DNA from: a virus
Taxonomy: Duplodnaviria > Caudoviricetes
IMG/VR virus record: IMGVR_UViG_3300033562_000804
Span: 1 to 40,551 of that record
Strand: one strand, 5' to 3'
Length of the DNA: 40,551 nt
Below the pieces are notes generated by a model that was given only the letters and a program-made list of their open reading frames with translations, searched no databases and was not told the DNA's origin. Position numbers and translations under genes: made by a program. This document shows, in pieces, positions 1,598 through 26,700 of this stretch (position 1 is the stretch's first letter; each line of letters opens with the position of its first letter).

Positions 1598-2005
1598 ATG
1601 CAACTAAAAGAAGAAAAACAATTAGAAAGTATAGATAAGATCAAAATTTTAATAGAATCTTACGATCAATTAGAAGATTACTTTAACGGATTATCTAATG
1701 ATTTAAGTATTAAAGATAAACAATTTAGTGATTTATATCATACTATAAAAGATGCAAAGCTAAATTCTAATAATGCTTATAAGTTTTGTAGAGAAATAAA
1801 GCAAATTTCAAACAAAAGAGCTGAAATTAAAAAGAATATAGCAATAAAAGACACATTTTATCAACATAAAAACAAGATGGAAAATAAAAGTAATCGTGGT
1901 CTTTTAAATAATGAAGTACATAGAAAGGGAAAAACTCTAAACTACCAGTATATAAACAGAATATATACTGAAGAAGATATTAGAGAAATATTAGGTGATA
2001 AATGA
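1598..2005 (+). CDS. Hypothetical helical phage protein
   Basis: 135-aa ORF with AAGGAG RBS. Confidence 0.75.
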   Translation: MQLKEEKQLESIDKIKILIESYDQLEDYFNGLSNDLSIKDKQFSDLYHTIKDAKLNSNNAYKFCREIKQISNKRAEIKKNIAIKDTFYQHKNKMENKSNRGLLNNEVHRKGKTLNYQYINRIYTEEDIREILGDK

Positions 2006-2232
2006 AAAAACTTACAAAAAAACAAAGAATTGTTTTAGATTTCATAAAAGATTTTATGTTAGATAACGGTTATGCACCATCAGTAAGAGAGATTGGAATA
2101 GGACTAAACTTATCTTCTCCAGCTACTATTCATGGTTATTTGAAAAGACTTAAAGAAAAAGATTACATAGACTATAAAGAAAATAAAAGTAGAACAATAA
2201 TTATACATTATAAAGATGAGCAGGAGGATTAA
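2002..2232 (+). CDS. LexA-type winged-helix DNA-binding domain protein (no peptidase domain)
   Basis: LTKKQRIVLDFIKDFMLDNGYAPSVREIGIGLNLSSPATIHGYLKRLKEKDYI...KSRTI closely follows the LexA N-terminal domain; ends at 76 aa. Confidence 0.88.
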   Translation: MKKLTKKQRIVLDFIKDFMLDNGYAPSVREIGIGLNLSSPATIHGYLKRLKEKDYIDYKENKSRTIIIHYKDEQED

Positions 2233-2455
2233 AGTGAATAAATTATTTAAAGATCAAAATGTTACGACTTATAAATTGCAAAAAGATTTAGGATTAACAC
2301 ATGATAGACTTTATAAATATACAAAATGTACTAGAAAAATAGAAAATATACCTACTGATTTATTGCTTAAAATATCACATTATTTTAAAATTGAAGTCAA
2401 TAAAATGTATAAAGATATGTTAGATTATCAAAAAGAAAAAATTATTAAAAAATAG
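2216..2455 (+). CDS. HTH (XRE-like) transcriptional regulator
   Basis: KLFKDQNVTTYKLQKDLGLTHDRLYKY...LLKISHYFKIEV fits the Cro/CI-type pattern. Confidence 0.7.
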   Translation: MSRRIKVNKLFKDQNVTTYKLQKDLGLTHDRLYKYTKCTRKIENIPTDLLLKISHYFKIEVNKMYKDMLDYQKEKIIKK

Positions 2456-2457
2456 CA

Positions 2458-2486
2458 TTGACTTATTATAATTTGTGATATATAAT
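2458..2486 (+). promoter_or_regulatory. Sigma-A/70 promoter for the cro-like and replication operon
   Basis: TTGACT-17 bp-TATAAT, followed by RBS AGAAAGGTAGGTG. Confidence 0.8.
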
Positions 2487-2513
2487 CAATATAGATAGAA
2501 AGGTAGGTGTGCT

Positions 2514-2714
2514 ATGTATCAACTAAAAGATGATTTAGATTTAAAAAAATACTCTCAAACAAAATTAGCAGAAATAGTAGGATTAAATCGTGAAACAGTT
2601 AATAGGATATTTAATAGAAAACAGTTATGTAGTAAGCTAGTTGCTTATTGTATGACAAAATATTTTGATAGCAAAAAGGAAATAGAATACTTTTTCGTTA
2701 GAGTGGAAGTGTAG
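2514..2714 (+). CDS. Cro-like HTH XRE regulator
   Basis: YSQTKLAEIVGLNRETVNRIFNRKQ helix-turn-helix. Confidence 0.8.
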   Translation: MYQLKDDLDLKKYSQTKLAEIVGLNRETVNRIFNRKQLCSKLVAYCMTKYFDSKKEIEYFFVRVEV

Positions 2715-10019: not shown

Positions 10020-10916
10020 ATGAAAGAAATTATTTTTAGAGAAAAGGAAGAACTAAACATCAAAAAAAACATGGGTAAGTTTTTAGAATATATAGATGTG
10101 TCTCAAAAAACTATAAAAACCTACGAGATAGCACTTAAACAGTTCGGAGAGTATTTATGCCAAAACAACATTATCACTCCTACAAGAGAGAATATAATAG
10201 CATATAGAGAACATATTGCTAGTTATTTAAAACCTACAAGCGTTAATAGTTATTTAATAGCGGTTAGAAATTTTTATAAATGGTTAGAGTACGAAGAAAT
10301 AACTAAAGATATAACTAAAAACATAAAAGGAATTAAGCTTGAAGAAAGACATCTTAAAAGAGGATTGTCTGAAGAAGAAATTAAATTAGTTTTAGATAAC
10401 TGCAAAGACATACGAGAAGAATTACTTATAAAATTGATGATAAGTTGTGCTTTGAGAGTAAATGAAGTTGTAAATATTAGATTAAATGACTTTTACCAAG
10501 AACAAGGAGTTACAATGTTAAACATCCTAGGAAAAGGAAGGGGCGGTATTAAACAAGATAGAGTTAAAATAGATCAAAGAATATTAGAAATTATGAAACA
10601 ATATATAAATGAATATAACATAAAAGATTATTTATTTACAAGTACAAGTAATAATAAAAAAGAACAATTAACTACAAAGACAATTAGACTTATTGTTACT
10701 AATATATTTAAAAGAAGTGGACTTGATATGAATAGGTTATCTTCTCACTCAACAAGACATACATCTTGTGAGATTTTATTACAAAAAGGTGTTCCAATAC
10801 AAGAAGTTAGTCAGTTTTTAAGACATAAATCTCTATCAACAGTAATGATTTATGCTAAAGAATTAAATCAAAGAACAAGTAAATCAGCAAACATTTTAAG
10901 TGATCAGTTTTTTTAA
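10020..10916 (+). CDS. Tyrosine recombinase/integrase (XerD-like)
   Basis: Catalytic residues R (ALRVNE), K (GKG), HxxR (HSTRH), H (LRHKS), Y (MIYAK); N-terminal core-binding domain. Confidence 0.93.
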   Translation: MKEIIFREKEELNIKKNMGKFLEYIDVSQKTIKTYEIALKQFGEYLCQNNIITPTRENIIAYREHIASYLKPTSVNSYLIAVRNFYKWLEYEEITKDITKNIKGIKLEERHLKRGLSEEEIKLVLDNCKDIREELLIKLMISCALRVNEVVNIRLNDFYQEQGVTMLNILGKGRGGIKQDRVKIDQRILEIMKQYINEYNIKDYLFTSTSNNKKEQLTTKTIRLIVTNIFKRSGLDMNRLSSHSTRHTSCEILLQKGVPIQEVSQFLRHKSLSTVMIYAKELNQRTSKSANILSDQFF

Positions 10917-13166: not shown

Positions 13167-13931
13167 TTATTTTCCAATATAAATTTTTTCGCCCACATAT
13201 AATTTTATTCGATAAAAACTGTCTTTGTTAACCGTATAAAATAATGGTGGTAAATCTTCTTTCAAGTTAGCAATTTCTTTTTCTAAAAGACTAATTTTGT
13301 CATCCAACACTTGATTTTCTTTTATATAAGTTTCTAACTTACTCTTATATGCAGATATTTCATCGTTTAACGCCGATATTTTACCATTTAATGAATTTAT
13401 AGTGTTCTTATATCCTTCTATCTCTTTTTCATCTACAATAGGCTTATTTAAGGAATTTAGTTCGCCACCAATTATATTCAAAAATCGTTGCCAACCTAAA
13501 TCGAGTGTGCGATGCGGACAATATTTATTGCTCCAATCTTGGTGCTTTTTAACTCTATCAATTCCCCATCCTCGTTCTTTTAAAAGTTTAGCCACGAATT
13601 TTGTACAATTTTGTTCTGCTTTTATAAATTTATCGCCACCACTTTTAGAATAACAAATCTCAATTCCTATTGATTTGCGATTTCCGTTTCCGTTTCCGCC
13701 ATCTCCACTGTGCCAAGCATTCCTATTTAAAGGAATACCTTGCACAACTTCAACATCATCGATAGCAAAGTGAAAAGAAACTTGATTTTCGTTTCTGATC
13801 ATATAAGCGACTTCGTTTCTCGCACTGGCATCATTAGCAGTATTATGTATTGTGATAAACTCTGGCGTCATTGTATAAGGACACTTGATATTGTATTTAT
13901 CGCTCGACACTAACATTTCTACTACATTCAT
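13167..13931 (-). CDS. Endolysin, N-acetylmuramoyl-L-alanine amidase (Amidase_2, XlyA/CwlA-like) with a coiled-coil C-terminus
   Basis: ITIHNTANDASARNE, VSFHFAIDD, AWHSGDG, SIGIEIC, KHQDWSNKYCP. Confidence 0.95.
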   Translation of the reverse strand: MNVVEMLVSSDKYNIKCPYTMTPEFITIHNTANDASARNEVAYMIRNENQVSFHFAIDDVEVVQGIPLNRNAWHSGDGGNGNGNRKSIGIEICYSKSGGDKFIKAEQNCTKFVAKLLKERGWGIDRVKKHQDWSNKYCPHRTLDLGWQRFLNIIGGELNSLNKPIVDEKEIEGYKNTINSLNGKISALNDEISAYKSKLETYIKENQVLDDKISLLEKEIANLKEDLPPLFYTVNKDSFYRIKLYVGEKIYIGK

Positions 13932-13932
13932 A

Positions 13933-14295
13933 TTATCGCTCTATTTCTATATCTAGTTCTTCTTCAATCGGTTCTTCTATAATTTCACTAACTTTTAGTA
14001 TCTCTTTTAAATTTAATAGTGCTTTTCCTAGATACATTATAATTGCCGATTTAATAAGTACATCAGGTGCTATTTCTAACTCGCCGATATTTATCATACC
14101 GAACAACTTATCATATACTATTGCCGAACCAATAAATCCGTAAGATATAATTATCGCTTTGCCAATTCCTATAAACAATTTTTTAAAACTAAAATCTTGT
14201 TTCAATTTCTCTAAACTATTATAAAGTCCTAGAACTAAGTTCATTGATATTGCCAAAAACAAATATGGCAACAAGTCTATTACTATTTTTATCAT
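13933..14295 (-). CDS. Putative holin
   Basis: About three TM segments, acidic tail, immediately upstream of the endolysin. Confidence 0.7.
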   Translation of the reverse strand: MIKIVIDLLPYLFLAISMNLVLGLYNSLEKLKQDFSFKKLFIGIGKAIIISYGFIGSAIVYDKLFGMINIGELEIAPDVLIKSAIIMYLGKALLNLKEILKVSEIIEEPIEEELDIEIER

Positions 14296-14627
14296 AAATT
14301 TCTCCTATCTTTTGAAATGAAAATTAAAAATAATCCAAGCAGTATTGGTAAAGTAAAAACAACATTAAAATTAACTAAAATAACGCTACTAACAGTAAAA
14401 TATAATAAAGTTAATAACGTACAAGTTATAATTCCAAAATGCCTTGTTTTACCCCTTAAAATCCAAAATATAATACTTATAAAAATAATTGGAATTAAGG
14501 TCTTAAAATATAAACCAATTAAGACCACTAATCCTGTTTGAATTAAATTTATTATTATTGTTAATATTAAATATATATTTTTCCAATTACTCAAAAAAAC
14601 TTGCAATTTTTTTAGATATTTTTTCAA
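14292..14627 (-). CDS. AgrB-like membrane peptidase (short, divergent)
   Basis: About four TM segments with FWILRGKTRHFGIITCTLLT, echoing the AgrB LR...H...C motif; the TTG start is uncertain. Confidence 0.6.
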   Translation of the reverse strand: MKKYLKKLQVFLSNWKNIYLILTIIINLIQTGLVVLIGLYFKTLIPIIFISIIFWILRGKTRHFGIITCTLLTLLYFTVSSVILVNFNVVFTLPILLGLFLIFISKDRRNL

Positions 14628-14661
14628 TTTTTTTCTTAAATGGAAACCAAAATAAACTCAT
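14587..14661 (-). CDS. 24-aa peptide MSLFWFPFKKKIEKISKKIASFFE, AgrD-like candidate
   Basis: Strong AAGGAGGT RBS and ATGA overlap with the upstream stop; not in the ORF track. Confidence 0.7.
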   Translation of the reverse strand: MSLFWFPFKKKIEKISKKIASFFE

Positions 14662-15242
14662 TTTAATACCTCCTTTACTTTGTTTTTTATTAAAATTATA
14701 ACATACATAAATATATAATAATCAAGACCTAACAAAAATCTTACTAGTGAACTATCTATATTGTTATAATCTATTCCTAATAACTTAAATTTTATAACAT
14801 AGAATAAAAATTGTATAAAAAATATGATTATTATATATAAAAAAGTGCTTATAATAGATGATATTTTTAAACTTTTTAAATATCTATACATAAAATAAAA
14901 TAAAATTATAAATATATTGCCAACTACTATATTGCTTATATTATGAACAATAGAGATAGCAAAGGAAAATGGTATGCTCAAACACACTATTTCCTTATAA
15001 TTATTCTCTTTTTCCATAAAAAACAAAGTTATTATATTACCTAAAAATGTATATATAAAATAAAACAATGTTTCTATAACAAAAAATTTCTTGATACTTC
15101 CTATTTTTATTTGTAAAGAATATAGTTCTACTTCTCTACAAAAAATGTTATATATAATTACAAAAACTATAAAAAATAATATTATTATTAAATTATATAA
15201 AAGTCCTTTTTTTTCAATTTCATTTTGCAATTTCTTCATCAA
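14658..15242 (-). CDS. Polytopic membrane protein, possibly like an AgrC sensor domain but with no kinase domain
   Basis: About six hydrophobic segments in 194 aa; no H-box or ATPase motifs. Confidence 0.65.
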   Translation of the reverse strand: MMKKLQNEIEKKGLLYNLIIILFFIVFVIIYNIFCREVELYSLQIKIGSIKKFFVIETLFYFIYTFLGNIITLFFMEKENNYKEIVCLSIPFSFAISIVHNISNIVVGNIFIILFYFMYRYLKSLKISSIISTFLYIIIIFFIQFLFYVIKFKLLGIDYNNIDSSLVRFLLGLDYYIFMYVIILIKNKVKEVLK

Positions 15243-15606
15243 AACTATCTCTAACTTTCTTCTCGTATTTATCTATATATGTCTTTGCTTTTATTTCAAC
15301 ACCGCTATTACCGTTCATTTCTAAATATTTTTTTGAAGCGTTATATCTTTTTTCATCAGACATATTTTTATTTACTATAATAAGGCTTAATATATCTAGT
15401 GTGTGGTGATCTTGTTCTTTTTTTAAATTATCAACCTTATCATTTAATTTGTTCATTCCGTCTGTAATATTTTCTATAAATTTTCTTATTTCTTCTATAA
15501 AACTTTTAATCCATGCAATAGGTTTCATTCCTATATTTATTAAAATTATTAAAGCACTTCCCACACTTCCTGCTAATAATATTTTTGCTATTAAAGTTTC
15601 AAACAT
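15220..15606 (-). CDS. Membrane-anchored lysis-region protein (holin-like)
   Basis: N-terminal TM, coiled coil, KKYLEMNGNSG motif. Confidence 0.6.
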   Translation of the reverse strand: MFETLIAKILLAGSVGSALIILINIGMKPIAWIKSFIEEIRKFIENITDGMNKLNDKVDNLKKEQDHHTLDILSLIIVNKNMSDEKRYNASKKYLEMNGNSGVEIKAKTYIDKYEKKVRDSFDEEIAK

Positions 15607-23730: not shown

Positions 23731-26700
23731 TTATCCTCCTATCGTAATAGGTTTACCATTACTTTTTGCCATTGCATTTAATTGTTTTAAAGTATAAGTA
23801 CCCAATTTGTTATTCTCATCTAAATAAATATTTATTGTTTGGTTATCATTTGATCCTGCTGATGACAATTTCTTATCGATCATATCCATCATTTGACTTT
23901 GGTTTGCTACGAATGTCTTGCCACCAATTTGTCCTACTAATTCTGCTCCTTTTTCATTTGCTATAAACATTTGTCCTACTGGAGGTAGTCCACCATCTGC
24001 GAATCTTCCTGCGCCACCAGATATCGTTTTTGTTATCGCCGCAGATTCGTTTTTAGCTCTTTTGTTAGCACTGTTTATAGAGGCTGTTATTGCCACTACT
24101 CCAGCTGCTATTCCTATAGCTGCTAATCCTAATGACCAAGCACTTTGTAAAGCACCTACCGCTACTGCTGCAACTGTAGCAGCGACTGCTAATAATCCCA
24201 GAACTGAAATTGTTTTTTCAAATCCGTTCATTTTACCCCAGTTTTGTGCAACACTTAATATTGCACCAGATAGTAATAAAAATCCTGCATAAGTAACTAA
24301 TAAAGGAACATTCATTATTGCTAATTTACCAGCTAGAGCTAAAAACAAAGATGGTAATAATTTCAAAAATGCTATTACTTTACCAGCTGTATAAAATCCT
24401 ACAATTCCTGTAAAAAATGATAATAATGTATTTGTCATTAAACTTACTGCACCTTGATTTTTTTCTGCCCATTTGCTAAAAATATTAAGATCTTCAGTTA
24501 ATAGTTTTATAAAATCTAAAACGACTCCAAAAGTCCATAGACCTATAGGTATTAAGAATTTATCTAATAACCATTGCGCTCCTTGTGTGAATGAATCTAT
24601 GATTGGTGTTAAAGCTGTAATAGAAGCAGTAATTAAATCTAAAAATGTTGGTATTATGTTTTCAACTGTGTATTTAGATAAAGGAAACAATATGTTTTTT
24701 ATAAACCAATCAACATTTGTTACAACAATCATACCAAAAGGTATTAAAGCATCAGTTAGATTTTTAAATGATTGAATTACATTTGTTAAATCTACTCCTG
24801 CTATTCCTTCAAATTTGAAAATAACTTTTCCTGTTTCTTCATCTATAAGTTTAGTAAATCCTAACCATTCCATTACTGTATCTCTTATTGAACTAGCCTT
24901 TGTTTTAACACTATCTAACATATCATTATATTTTTCAAACGAAGCGTTAAAAGCATCTTGTAGTCTTGAATCTATTGCTCCTCCACCTACTGAACTATCA
25001 TCTGATGATGGAGTAGTTATATTATTTAATTTATCAAACCCTCTTAGACCTGATTTTAACTTTTCAGCACTTTCAGTTGCTCCATCCATTCCCTCTATGA
25101 GATCGTTTGCAGCATCTCCTGTCCCAGATAATCCACTATAATCAAACTCTGGCATCTTAAATCCTAATAGTCCAGAAATAACTTTAGCTATTTCTACTAT
25201 AACCATCAAAATTGCATTTATATAAGGTAATATTGCTTGTAGAACAGGATAAAATACATTACCTACTGCTCTTGTTACCCTTTGCCATTGTTCTCCCATT
25301 ATTCTTATTTGGTTATTTACAGATTCAATAGTACGACCATAGTCTCCTTGAGATACTTTTAACTGCTTAGAAAGACTTATAACCATTGTTAATCTTTTTT
25401 CGGCAAATGTTAAGTCTCTTATGTTTCTATCTATTCCTAGTTGATCTAGTGTTCCTTGTAATGTTTTCTCTGTAATATCGGCACCTGTGGCACCTCTTAT
25501 TGGTCTAACCTGCATTGTATTCGCACTAATTCGCTAATTTTAGTACCGTTCTCTTATGAACTGCTATGCCTTCATTTATTCGCATAGATTAGACTATATC
25601 TTCTATTATTTCTAATAGCCTACCTTTTCCACTCGCTTGAGTGTACTCTCTTTCGAGATAGTCGTTGAAGTTTATTTGACTTCATATTTCCATACATATC
25701 CTTTATATGTTTTTAAACTTCCACGACAACAATCTCTTATATGACTAGATAAAATGCCATTTTTTCTACTTGCATCTCCACTACTTTCATATTTTTCTAT
25801 AAAATTGCCATCTTTGTCAAATTTTAAAACACTTTTACTTGTTTTTAAATCATTACCCATAGGCATGACTCTTAACTTATTTTCTAAAGCATGTATATTA
25901 TTATGTTGAATACTACACCATTCCAAATTATCTATATTGTTATTGTTCTTATCGCCATCTTTATGATTAACAACTGGATAATTATTAGGATTCGGTATGA
26001 ATGCTTGTGCTACTAATCTATGAGAAGAAAATTCTTTGTTTTTACTTTTTAAAGATAATGTATATCTTTTATAACCATCTTTATCAATCTTATTTTTTAT
26101 ATAATTAGGTAAAGGATATTGTTTTAAATTACCTTTATTATCATATTTTATTCTTCTAACATTTCCATGATTAGATATTTCATAGTATTCTTCATAATTT
26201 TTTATCGGTTTCCAAATTTCTTGCATATTATTTCCTCCAAGCACTAATATACATCGTTCGACCGAAAAAGTCAAATCTTACCTGCTGATTGCCTCCTTAA
26301 AGGTGTTCCAGCAATTAAATAGGTTTAAAGTGAGCCATAGTATTAACCCACTAATGCAGACTGTAAAGCATTTTCTGCTCTACTTAAATCTATATTATAT
26401 AAAGATGATATATCGTTTGTCATTTTAACCATAAGTTCTGAAAGTCGTTCACCAGTTTCTACTGGTAACTGCATAGCATTAGATAATTGCTTAAATATAC
26501 CTAATGATCTTACTAGTCTGGATTCATCAAGACCATAAACTTCACTCATAGTATTTACAAACTTTTTAACATTTGCAGATGATTCATCGACACTTTTACC
26601 ATTTCTTTTGAATGCAACTTCTAATAAGTTTATATTTTCTACATAATCAGAACTTTCTTTAACAATACCAGCCATAAATCCAGAAAATCTTTTTAATCCA

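Follow-up and report, generated by a model that had tools for sequence, protein, structure and literature searches.

The window analysed here, i.e. the whole stretch of 40,551 bases, is a virus record with an estimated completeness of 85% and a GC content of 27.6%, which encodes a terminase, a portal protein, a major head protein, a tyrosine recombinase and an amidase. The amidase gene gave the only match in a DNA search, to Bacillus and Paenibacillus phages, and the terminase shares less than 25% identity with those of cultured phages, which points to a low-GC Gram-positive bacterium as the probable host. Ahead of the replication gene lie three small DNA-binding genes in a row (2002–2714, plus strand), one for a bare LexA DNA-binding domain (E 2e-22) and two for helix-turn-helix proteins, and the tyrosine recombinase gene (10020–10916, plus strand) lies in the middle of the early arm with no repressor gene adjoining it. 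A gene for a NUMOD4-HNH endonuclease (25672–26274, minus strand) is found among the structural genes next to a 43-base match common to a second phage, L001.

The lysis module is located on the minus strand and comprises, in this order, the 128-aa gene, the genes for the 193-aa membrane protein and the 24-aa peptide, the AgrB-like gene, the 120-aa membrane gene and the amidase gene. Its features are as follows:

15220 to 15606, minus strand: 128-aa gene directly upstream of the 193-aa gene, encoding one N-terminal membrane segment and a coiled coil
14658 to 15239, minus strand: 193-aa membrane protein with 5–6 hydrophobic segments and no kinase domain
14668 to 14675, minus strand: Shine-Dalgarno site AAGGAGGT of the peptide gene, within the 3' end of the 193-aa gene, with a 6-nt spacer
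14587 to 14661, minus strand: 24-aa leaderless precursor-like peptide, whose start overlaps the upstream stop (ATGA)
14644 to 14658, minus strand: putative ring S-L-F-W-F (residues 2–6), followed by Pro; its counterpart in L001 is C-L-L-W-F-P
14590 to 14631, minus strand: predicted amphipathic C-terminal helix of the peptide (residues 11–24), whose best match is the N-terminal helix of full-length AgrB
14292 to 14594, minus strand: half-size AgrB relative of about 100 aa with four predicted helices, whose likely TTG start overlaps the last codons of the peptide
14421 to 14441, minus strand: His52...Cys58, aligned with the AgrB catalytic dyad (Staphylococcus aureus His77/Cys84)
13933 to 14295, minus strand: 120-aa membrane protein, whose start overlaps the stop of the half-size AgrB gene; a candidate holin by position only
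13167 to 13931, minus strand: amidase endolysin (PF01510, E 3.4e-22; phrog_3088, E 5.6e-77)

Stops and starts overlap or abut throughout this module and a terminator-like hairpin lies immediately 3' of the amidase gene; promoter-like sites showed no excess (23 against 24.5 in shuffles). The cassette would presumably be transcribed together with the late genes. Its three genes, which the first-pass annotation had described as tightly overlapping, are all present as open reading frames on the minus strand and are real and conserved. An 11,654-base contig from an independent assembly of run X1, possibly derived from the same sample, is identical to the window over the 401 bases compared, and runs X2 and X3 yielded only short unrelated pieces over the cassette. 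The cassette genes have a GC content of 17–21%, compared with 27.6% for the window, and a PADLOC search of the cassette matched no system.

The same annotation had placed the cassette between a holin-like gene and a holin–endolysin pair. This held for the endolysin, an amidase of the PF01510 family, but searches of Pfam, PHROGs and NCBIfam assigned neither putative holin gene to a family of holins. The 120-aa protein belongs to no family in these three databases, and the 128-aa protein, at most a putative holin, to no named one; weak PADLOC matches of the latter are confined to its coiled coil.

Relatives of the half-size AgrB (mini-AgrB) are few. A HMMER search with the window protein recovered four and an alignment search recovered six among 6705 candidates; cluster look-ups added two near-copies to the family. 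The cassette was read as DNA at two loci, the window and L001, where the genes are ordered as 138-aa gene, 193-aa-like membrane protein, peptide, mini-AgrB, holin and amidase. The 128-aa protein and its same-place counterpart in L001 (138 aa, 402–818) share 26% identity over 121 aa (E 7e-17), so this upstream gene accompanies the cassette in both phages. The L001 holin belongs to PF04531, a family unlike the gene found in that position in the window, and the cassette thus keeps its place while the holin changes. Motif scans returned the L001 phage twice more, as loci L002 and L003 (L003 is identical to L001 over 4650 bases), along with four genome matches, all four due to chance. No relative was found in scans of viral contigs with window proteins or alignments (the three alignment scans gave at least 598–599 candidates), in scans of metagenomes and genomes with single homologs or in tblastn searches against cultured phages. 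In a word-indexed protein search, the mini-AgrB had no relative and the membrane protein matched only itself. Among 401 genomes of one phylum, that of the Lachnospiraceae assembly G001, the mini-AgrB alignment had no match (0/401 at E 1e-5), and the five matches of the membrane protein alignment (E 0.003–0.007) were short or riddled with stops and were judged to be chance.

The AgrB-like gene lies in an open frame (14292–14627, minus strand) that contains the motif LR-GKTR-H-FGIIT-C. The homologs are 97–101 aa long and begin at the position of the TTG at 14594, which is therefore the most likely start (100 aa), albeit one with no Shine-Dalgarno match. The peptide and the AgrB-like frame could in principle be a single gene broken by a slip in a run of seven Ts, through either an assembly error or a programmed frameshift, given that a one-base shift yields a 122-aa protein with an AgrB-like start. 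However, the contig from run X1 carries the identical sequence, read-through gains only 1 bit against the Pfam AgrB model, a Met is found at the boundary in five of six homologs, and the AgrB frame of L001 is closed by two stops just upstream and has a different frame offset. On these grounds a frameshift or assembly artefact was rejected as scarcely credible.

The short membrane protein is, by sequence, a half-size relative of AgrB. Pfam AgrB (PF04647) is its top match, at 11.8–11.9 bits (E 0.15–0.16) and hence below the gathering cut-off of 23 bits, and is also the top match of all seven homologs scanned (best E 2e-9); three of the seven exceed the cut-off, one of them aided by an extension in an overlapping frame. 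The mini-AgrBs cover approximately positions 22–118 of the 185 in the profile and lack the first helix and the C-terminal third, having 97–101 aa compared with 185–243 aa in 32 sampled AgrBs. The roughly 65 missing C-terminal profile positions probably include the counterpart of S. aureus K139, a residue modelled in contact with the AgrD tail (PMC10482373, section 6). His52 and Cys58 are invariant in all eight members of the family and align with the canonical His and Cys in a profile of the 32 AgrBs; in S. aureus, His77 and Cys84 form the catalytic dyad (PMC10482373, section 6). The AgrB-like assignment proposed in the first-pass annotation on the basis of this pair is supported as to ancestry. 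Its remark that the motif spacing is shorter than usual was borne out in part: H-x5-C is found in all seven mini-AgrBs, each of which lacks the GG motif that precedes the His, whereas R-x4-H is peculiar to the window copy and the other six members have x6. Of the 32 canonical AgrBs, 31 have R-x6-H-x6-C with Gly, and the AgrB of phage Harrison also has H-x5-C.

In a phylogenetic tree, the seven mini-AgrBs form a single clade (support 100/99), with the published phage AgrBs outside it. This clade sits on a long branch (2.94) with a placement support of 14 and a bootstrap that had not settled, and its origin is left unplaced by the tree; no other mini-AgrB has an end branch as long as that of the window copy (0.66). 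The AlphaFold model of the mini-AgrB has four helices (pLDDT 69.9). A structural comparison gave a divided answer on the similarity to AgrB: when viral models were searched with Foldseek, AgrB proteins had the two highest TM-scores (0.69 and 0.58) of the 50 matches listed, but their E-values (3.0 and 5.7) were not significant. In the ESM Atlas the top three matches were AgrBs (0.77–0.80), which we regard as a lead. The best TM-score match among the viral models is BFVD entry A0A8S5R960, a viral protein named AgrB that, judging by its length of 429 aa, is perhaps a fusion. Fold searches against the PDB gave no informative match (the top Z-score, 8.0, was for a helical protein that is unrelated), a sequence search with canonical AgrB against solved structures found no relative, and with the literature searched as well, no solved AgrB structure is on hand.

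The peptide gene was unannotated, and the strong ribosome-binding site claimed for it proved to be exceptional: AAGGAGGT is the sole 8-base Shine-Dalgarno match among the 866 starts of 15–40-codon ORFs in the window. At the corresponding place before its own peptide, L001 has AAAGAGGTGA. The L001 peptide is 27 aa long and begins with M-G-W-C-L-L-W-F-P, and like that of the window it is encoded between the two membrane protein genes. A third counterpart can be deduced from homolog P0004, which was called with a 24-residue extension. The -1 frame of this extension is compatible with 18 of the 24 positions of the window peptide and 19 of the 27 positions of the L001 peptide, stop included; the best of the 5000 shuffles made for each peptide reached 17 and 15 positions, respectively. 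It would allow for the W-F and for a correctly placed stop and would have S, T, A or P, never Cys, at the ring position.

Both sequenced peptides carry Ser or Cys four residues before the end of the W-F motif. The putative nucleophile is preceded by a single residue in the window peptide (Ser) and by three in that of L001 (Cys), and neither peptide has the AgrD leader of about 25 aa. Nor does either contain PxxP, the motif described for the AgrD follower in an excerpt of PMC3901668 and also present in 23 canonical AgrD-like peptides, a set chosen for its Pro motif; each has a single Pro. By analogy with AgrD, the ring is predicted to have five residues, although six-residue or amine-closed rings are compatible as well. 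A five-residue ring would imply cleavage before Pro, whereas in the 23 canonical peptides the Pro comes later in the sequence. According to the cited part of PMC10482373, S. aureus AgrB is unable to process Ser precursors and the N-terminal amphipathic helix of AgrD is apparently essential for processing. In phages Harrison and Emery, the peptides adjoining AgrB (L042, 2501–2629, and L043, 2476–2592) are devoid of any Cys, so that ring closure by another residue may recur in phage cassettes.

A 6-nt indel allows Ser2 of the window peptide to be aligned with either Cys4 or Gly2 of the L001 peptide, and the Cys codon has perhaps been deleted in the window. This is one of several signs that the family could be functional and the window copy decaying, with no signal being made. 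The copy also has a unique two-residue Arg-His deletion (one of seven), the longest end branch and a TTG start without a Shine-Dalgarno match, and an out-of-frame TTG ORF reads like the start of the family. That ORF, of 27 codons (14503–14586, minus strand), begins immediately after the peptide stop, resembles the first eight residues of the family and is possibly a vestige of an older start. Decay nevertheless appears rather improbable: all three frames are open over their full length, neither His nor Cys has been lost, the indels within the peptide and ahead of the His leave the frame intact, a hydroxyl residue occupies the ring position, and the TTG apparently overlaps the end of the peptide, as deduced for P0004.

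As stated in the first-pass annotation, the amphipathic helix of the peptide follows the ring instead of leading it, being formed by residues 11–24. This tail resembles, in sequence, the first helix of AgrB, which is absent from the mini-AgrB. When scored against an AgrB profile built in this analysis from 32 bacterial sequences, both peptide tails found their best place in the entire profile at columns 3–17, with 12.5 and 12.8 bits. Among 2000 shuffles, 1 and 3, respectively, scored as highly; so did 2 of 797 pieces of window proteins, but none of the 23 canonical AgrD-like peptides or 57 amphipathic basic pieces. In a leave-one-out comparison, canonical AgrB N-termini had a median of 14.65 bits, and 10 of the 32 fell below 12.5. 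The alternative frame over the window peptide scored 10.2 bits on the helix profile and the in-frame extension of P0004 scored 8.6, so the Lys-rich, AT-biased sequence accounts for part of the helix score.

This likeness invites the view that the peptide is a first helix that was separated from AgrB and now serves as one subunit of a two-piece enzyme, its aromatic N-terminus being only a membrane anchor and the true substrate being another molecule, e.g. an AgrD of the host. The tail does match the missing helix, the peptide and the core are encoded in the order expected of a split agrB, the nucleophile is not strictly conserved, and there is neither a leader nor PxxP. Such a two-piece enzyme is unlikely, however, in view of the W-F with Ser or Cys four residues before its end in both sequenced peptides, a motif with no comparable counterpart, by inspection, in any of 32 canonical AgrB N-termini. 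Besides, the ribosome site of the peptide is far stronger than that of the enzyme, as would be expected of a substrate made in excess.

The membrane protein upstream of the peptide is encoded by an ORF (14658–15242, minus strand) that specifies 194 aa if translation begins at a TTG or 193 aa if it begins at the ATG next to it (15239). About six transmembrane segments had been ascribed to it, and by hydropathy this number applies to the L001 homolog but not to the window copy, which has five. The two proteins are 40% identical over 188 aa, and the L001 homolog is the sole relative found. The 193-aa protein matched no Pfam, PHROG, NCBIfam or PADLOC family, its model has a pLDDT of 48, and all of its structure matches in the ESM Atlas had TM-scores below 0.5.

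For comparison, we used a set of 25 membrane proteins, each of about 160 aa and stand-alone, picked by eye at 23 of 32 bacterial agrB loci, which match the N-termini of three neighbouring kinases with an hhalign probability of 99.75%. The phage pair aligned with these agr-neighbour membrane domains at 50% over 113 columns (44% without the kinases), and the alignment score of 31.3 exceeded those of the controls (at most 21.6 for 60 local shuffles, 17.3 for the reversed sequence and 18.0 for 22 other membrane proteins). When the L001 protein was used alone, the probability dropped to 1.5%, the noise level. Direct comparisons, with the three kinase N-termini (1.8%) and with a set of the phiCDHM1 type (1.55%), were not significant. 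The description of this protein as receptor-like is thus weak, for the match of the pair stands above the controls but the L001 homolog on its own stays within noise; a remote relationship to the membrane domain of agr-linked kinases is possible and should be taken as a lead.

The reported absence of a kinase and a response regulator was corroborated. The histidine kinase domain PF14501 (GHKL) was not found in the 85%-complete record of the window, LytTR (PF04397) was found neither there nor in the 38%-complete record of L001, and a scan of 50 additional ORFs revealed no response regulator. Among the bacterial loci (L012–L040), stand-alone membrane proteins of about 160 aa that are homologous to the N-termini of agr-linked kinases occur at 23 of 32 agrB loci, and about 10 loci have, alongside, a membrane protein with a GGDEF-like motif, as read by eye. 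Kinase-free agr modules may be common in the bacteria sampled.

The cassette shares several features with the AgrB/AgrD pair of the agrBDCA systems of Staphylococcus and clostridia, as outlined in the cited parts of PMC10482373 and PMC10196373. It encodes an AgrB-homologous membrane protein with the His/Cys pair and an adjoining small peptide gene with its own ribosome site, and in the peptide a putative ring would open with Cys or Ser and continue with four residues that are hydrophobic or aromatic. It differs in the length of the mini-AgrB (97–101 aa), which lacks the first helix, the C-terminal third and the GG motif and is modelled with four helices, whereas canonical AgrB has about six membrane helices in about 190–240 aa. 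Unlike AgrD, the peptide is leaderless, has no PxxP and ends in a basic amphipathic tail; there is neither a kinase nor a response regulator, and the 193-aa protein lacks the GHKL domain typical of AgrC.

Kinase-free phage agr cassettes have been described before, in the Brevibacillus phages Davies, Emery and Abouo (2014; PMC3901668, in part). Together with Paenibacillus phage Harrison, these phages have in common with our cassette a kinase-free membrane protein directly upstream, an AgrB and a small peptide. However, cassettes of the Abouo/Emery/Harrison type encode a full-length AgrB (169–172 aa) that falls outside the mini clade, in the order membrane protein, agrB, peptide and LytTR (gp47 of Abouo is PF04397), and are located beside integrase and regulator genes; their peptide has a leader and a C-terminal Pro motif, and their membrane proteins could not be aligned with ours (hhalign 0.46%, not significant). 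The agr3 locus (agrC-agrB-agrD) of the Clostridium difficile phage phiCDHM1, as described in part of PMC3901668, resembles the cassette in adjoining the endolysin gene, in its low GC content and in having no response regulator. It differs in encoding a 453-aa histidine kinase (PF14501), a 197-aa AgrB and a canonical AgrD, and it is found on the other strand, downstream of the endolysin gene. A third likeness is to the homodetic cAIPs of clostridia (PMC8251862, in part), since a ring without an N-terminal tail would become a head-to-tail cyclopentapeptide; those, however, require that a leader be cut first and employ a Cys nucleophile, whereas the window peptide has only Met before its ring. 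Searches of the open-access literature showed no AgrB of half size, no AgrD without a leader and no cassette embedded among lysis genes; work in subscription journals or in supplements may bear on this point. In sum, the cassette is real, conserved and agr-derived and is, on the best reading, AgrB/AgrD-like, yet it departs from AgrB, AgrD and AgrC in several of their defining features.

The parallel with phiCDHM1 also lends some weight to a different role, in which an agr-type signal is made or degraded against host quorum sensing. The lysis locus would then be no more than a place where insertions are common, and the membrane protein would act as a decoy or accessory and not as a regulator of lysis. 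The agrDBC genes of phiCDHM1, which adjoin the endolysin gene on the opposite strand, are read as host manipulation (PMC3901668, in part); matching stand-alone membrane proteins, identified by eye, flank agrB at 23 of 32 bacterial loci; and the GC content is low both in the cassette (17–21% against 27.6%) and in the two L001 membrane genes (20% against 27.9%). Low GC, however, would also be expected of membrane genes rich in Phe, Ile, Leu and Tyr codons. In both phages, moreover, the genes overlap on the same strand between the 128-aa gene (or its counterpart) and the holin position, and late expression would be poorly suited to host manipulation. We consider interference with host signalling the less likely role, but it is the alternative to be taken most seriously.

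The reading that we prefer, with a probability of roughly 45%, is that in late infection the mini-AgrB closes a leaderless [S/C]-x-x-W-F ring and that the neighbouring kinase-free membrane protein binds the product. In outline, a cassette joined to the lysis genes by overlapping stops and starts would encode a half-size AgrB that likely cuts a leaderless peptide, whose first residues would be closed into a small aromatic ring, predicted as S-L-F-W-F in the window and C-L-L-W-F in L001. The His/Cys pair is probably catalytically active. The peptide, which its C-terminal amphipathic helix would keep at the membrane, is plausibly the substrate of the mini-AgrB, if by a narrow balance; that its helix docks in the position of the first helix of AgrB itself is rather doubtful. 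By analogy with AgrB (PMC10482373, section 6), Cys58 would form an acyl-enzyme after the W-F motif and the ring would be closed by Ser2 or Cys4.

If the docking did occur, the follower of the precursor would be the very helix lost from AgrB, and the enzyme would be whole only with its substrate docked. The precursor would then combine a ring at its start with the lost helix, and the pentapeptide would act through the kinase-free membrane protein on the holin; a self-completing cyclase of this kind seems unlikely.

To return to the preferred reading, the N-terminal Met is as a rule removed from proteins with Met-Ser starts. Once it is lost, the free amine would allow the window ring to turn head-to-tail cyclic, and a Ser lactone might be converted into cyclo(SLFWF), or the latter might be formed directly, with no need for a leader protease; we regard this route as conceivable but short of an even chance. 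In clostridia, tail-less pentapeptide thiolactones are known to become homodetic rings, and the cited part of that work leaves the fate of Ser lactones unresolved (PMC8251862). Binding of the cyclic product by the 193-aa protein is a tentative proposal, and an output at the membrane on holin timing, by which lysis would be delayed or advanced with phage density, is more speculative still. Lacking both a kinase and a DNA-binding partner, the cassette would most simply be wired through an output at the membrane that acts on the holin, and antiholin control in T4 provides an analogy (PMC11413866, in part). The link to lysis is drawn purely from gene position.

These possibilities bear on AgrB biochemistry and on phage communication alike. 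If active, the 100-residue AgrB would define how small the catalytic core of such a membrane cyclase can be, and a leaderless precursor, if processed, would extend AgrB chemistry to substrates with neither a leader nor a leader protease, offering a two-gene route to cyclic pentapeptides; the peptide and mini-AgrB are a pair small enough for direct laboratory testing. The lysis link, if true, would constitute a new kind of phage communication, concerned with burst timing and not with the lysis–lysogeny switch. Gram-positive phages would then possess a peptide-controlled lysis timer distinct from both arbitrium and T4 lysis inhibition.
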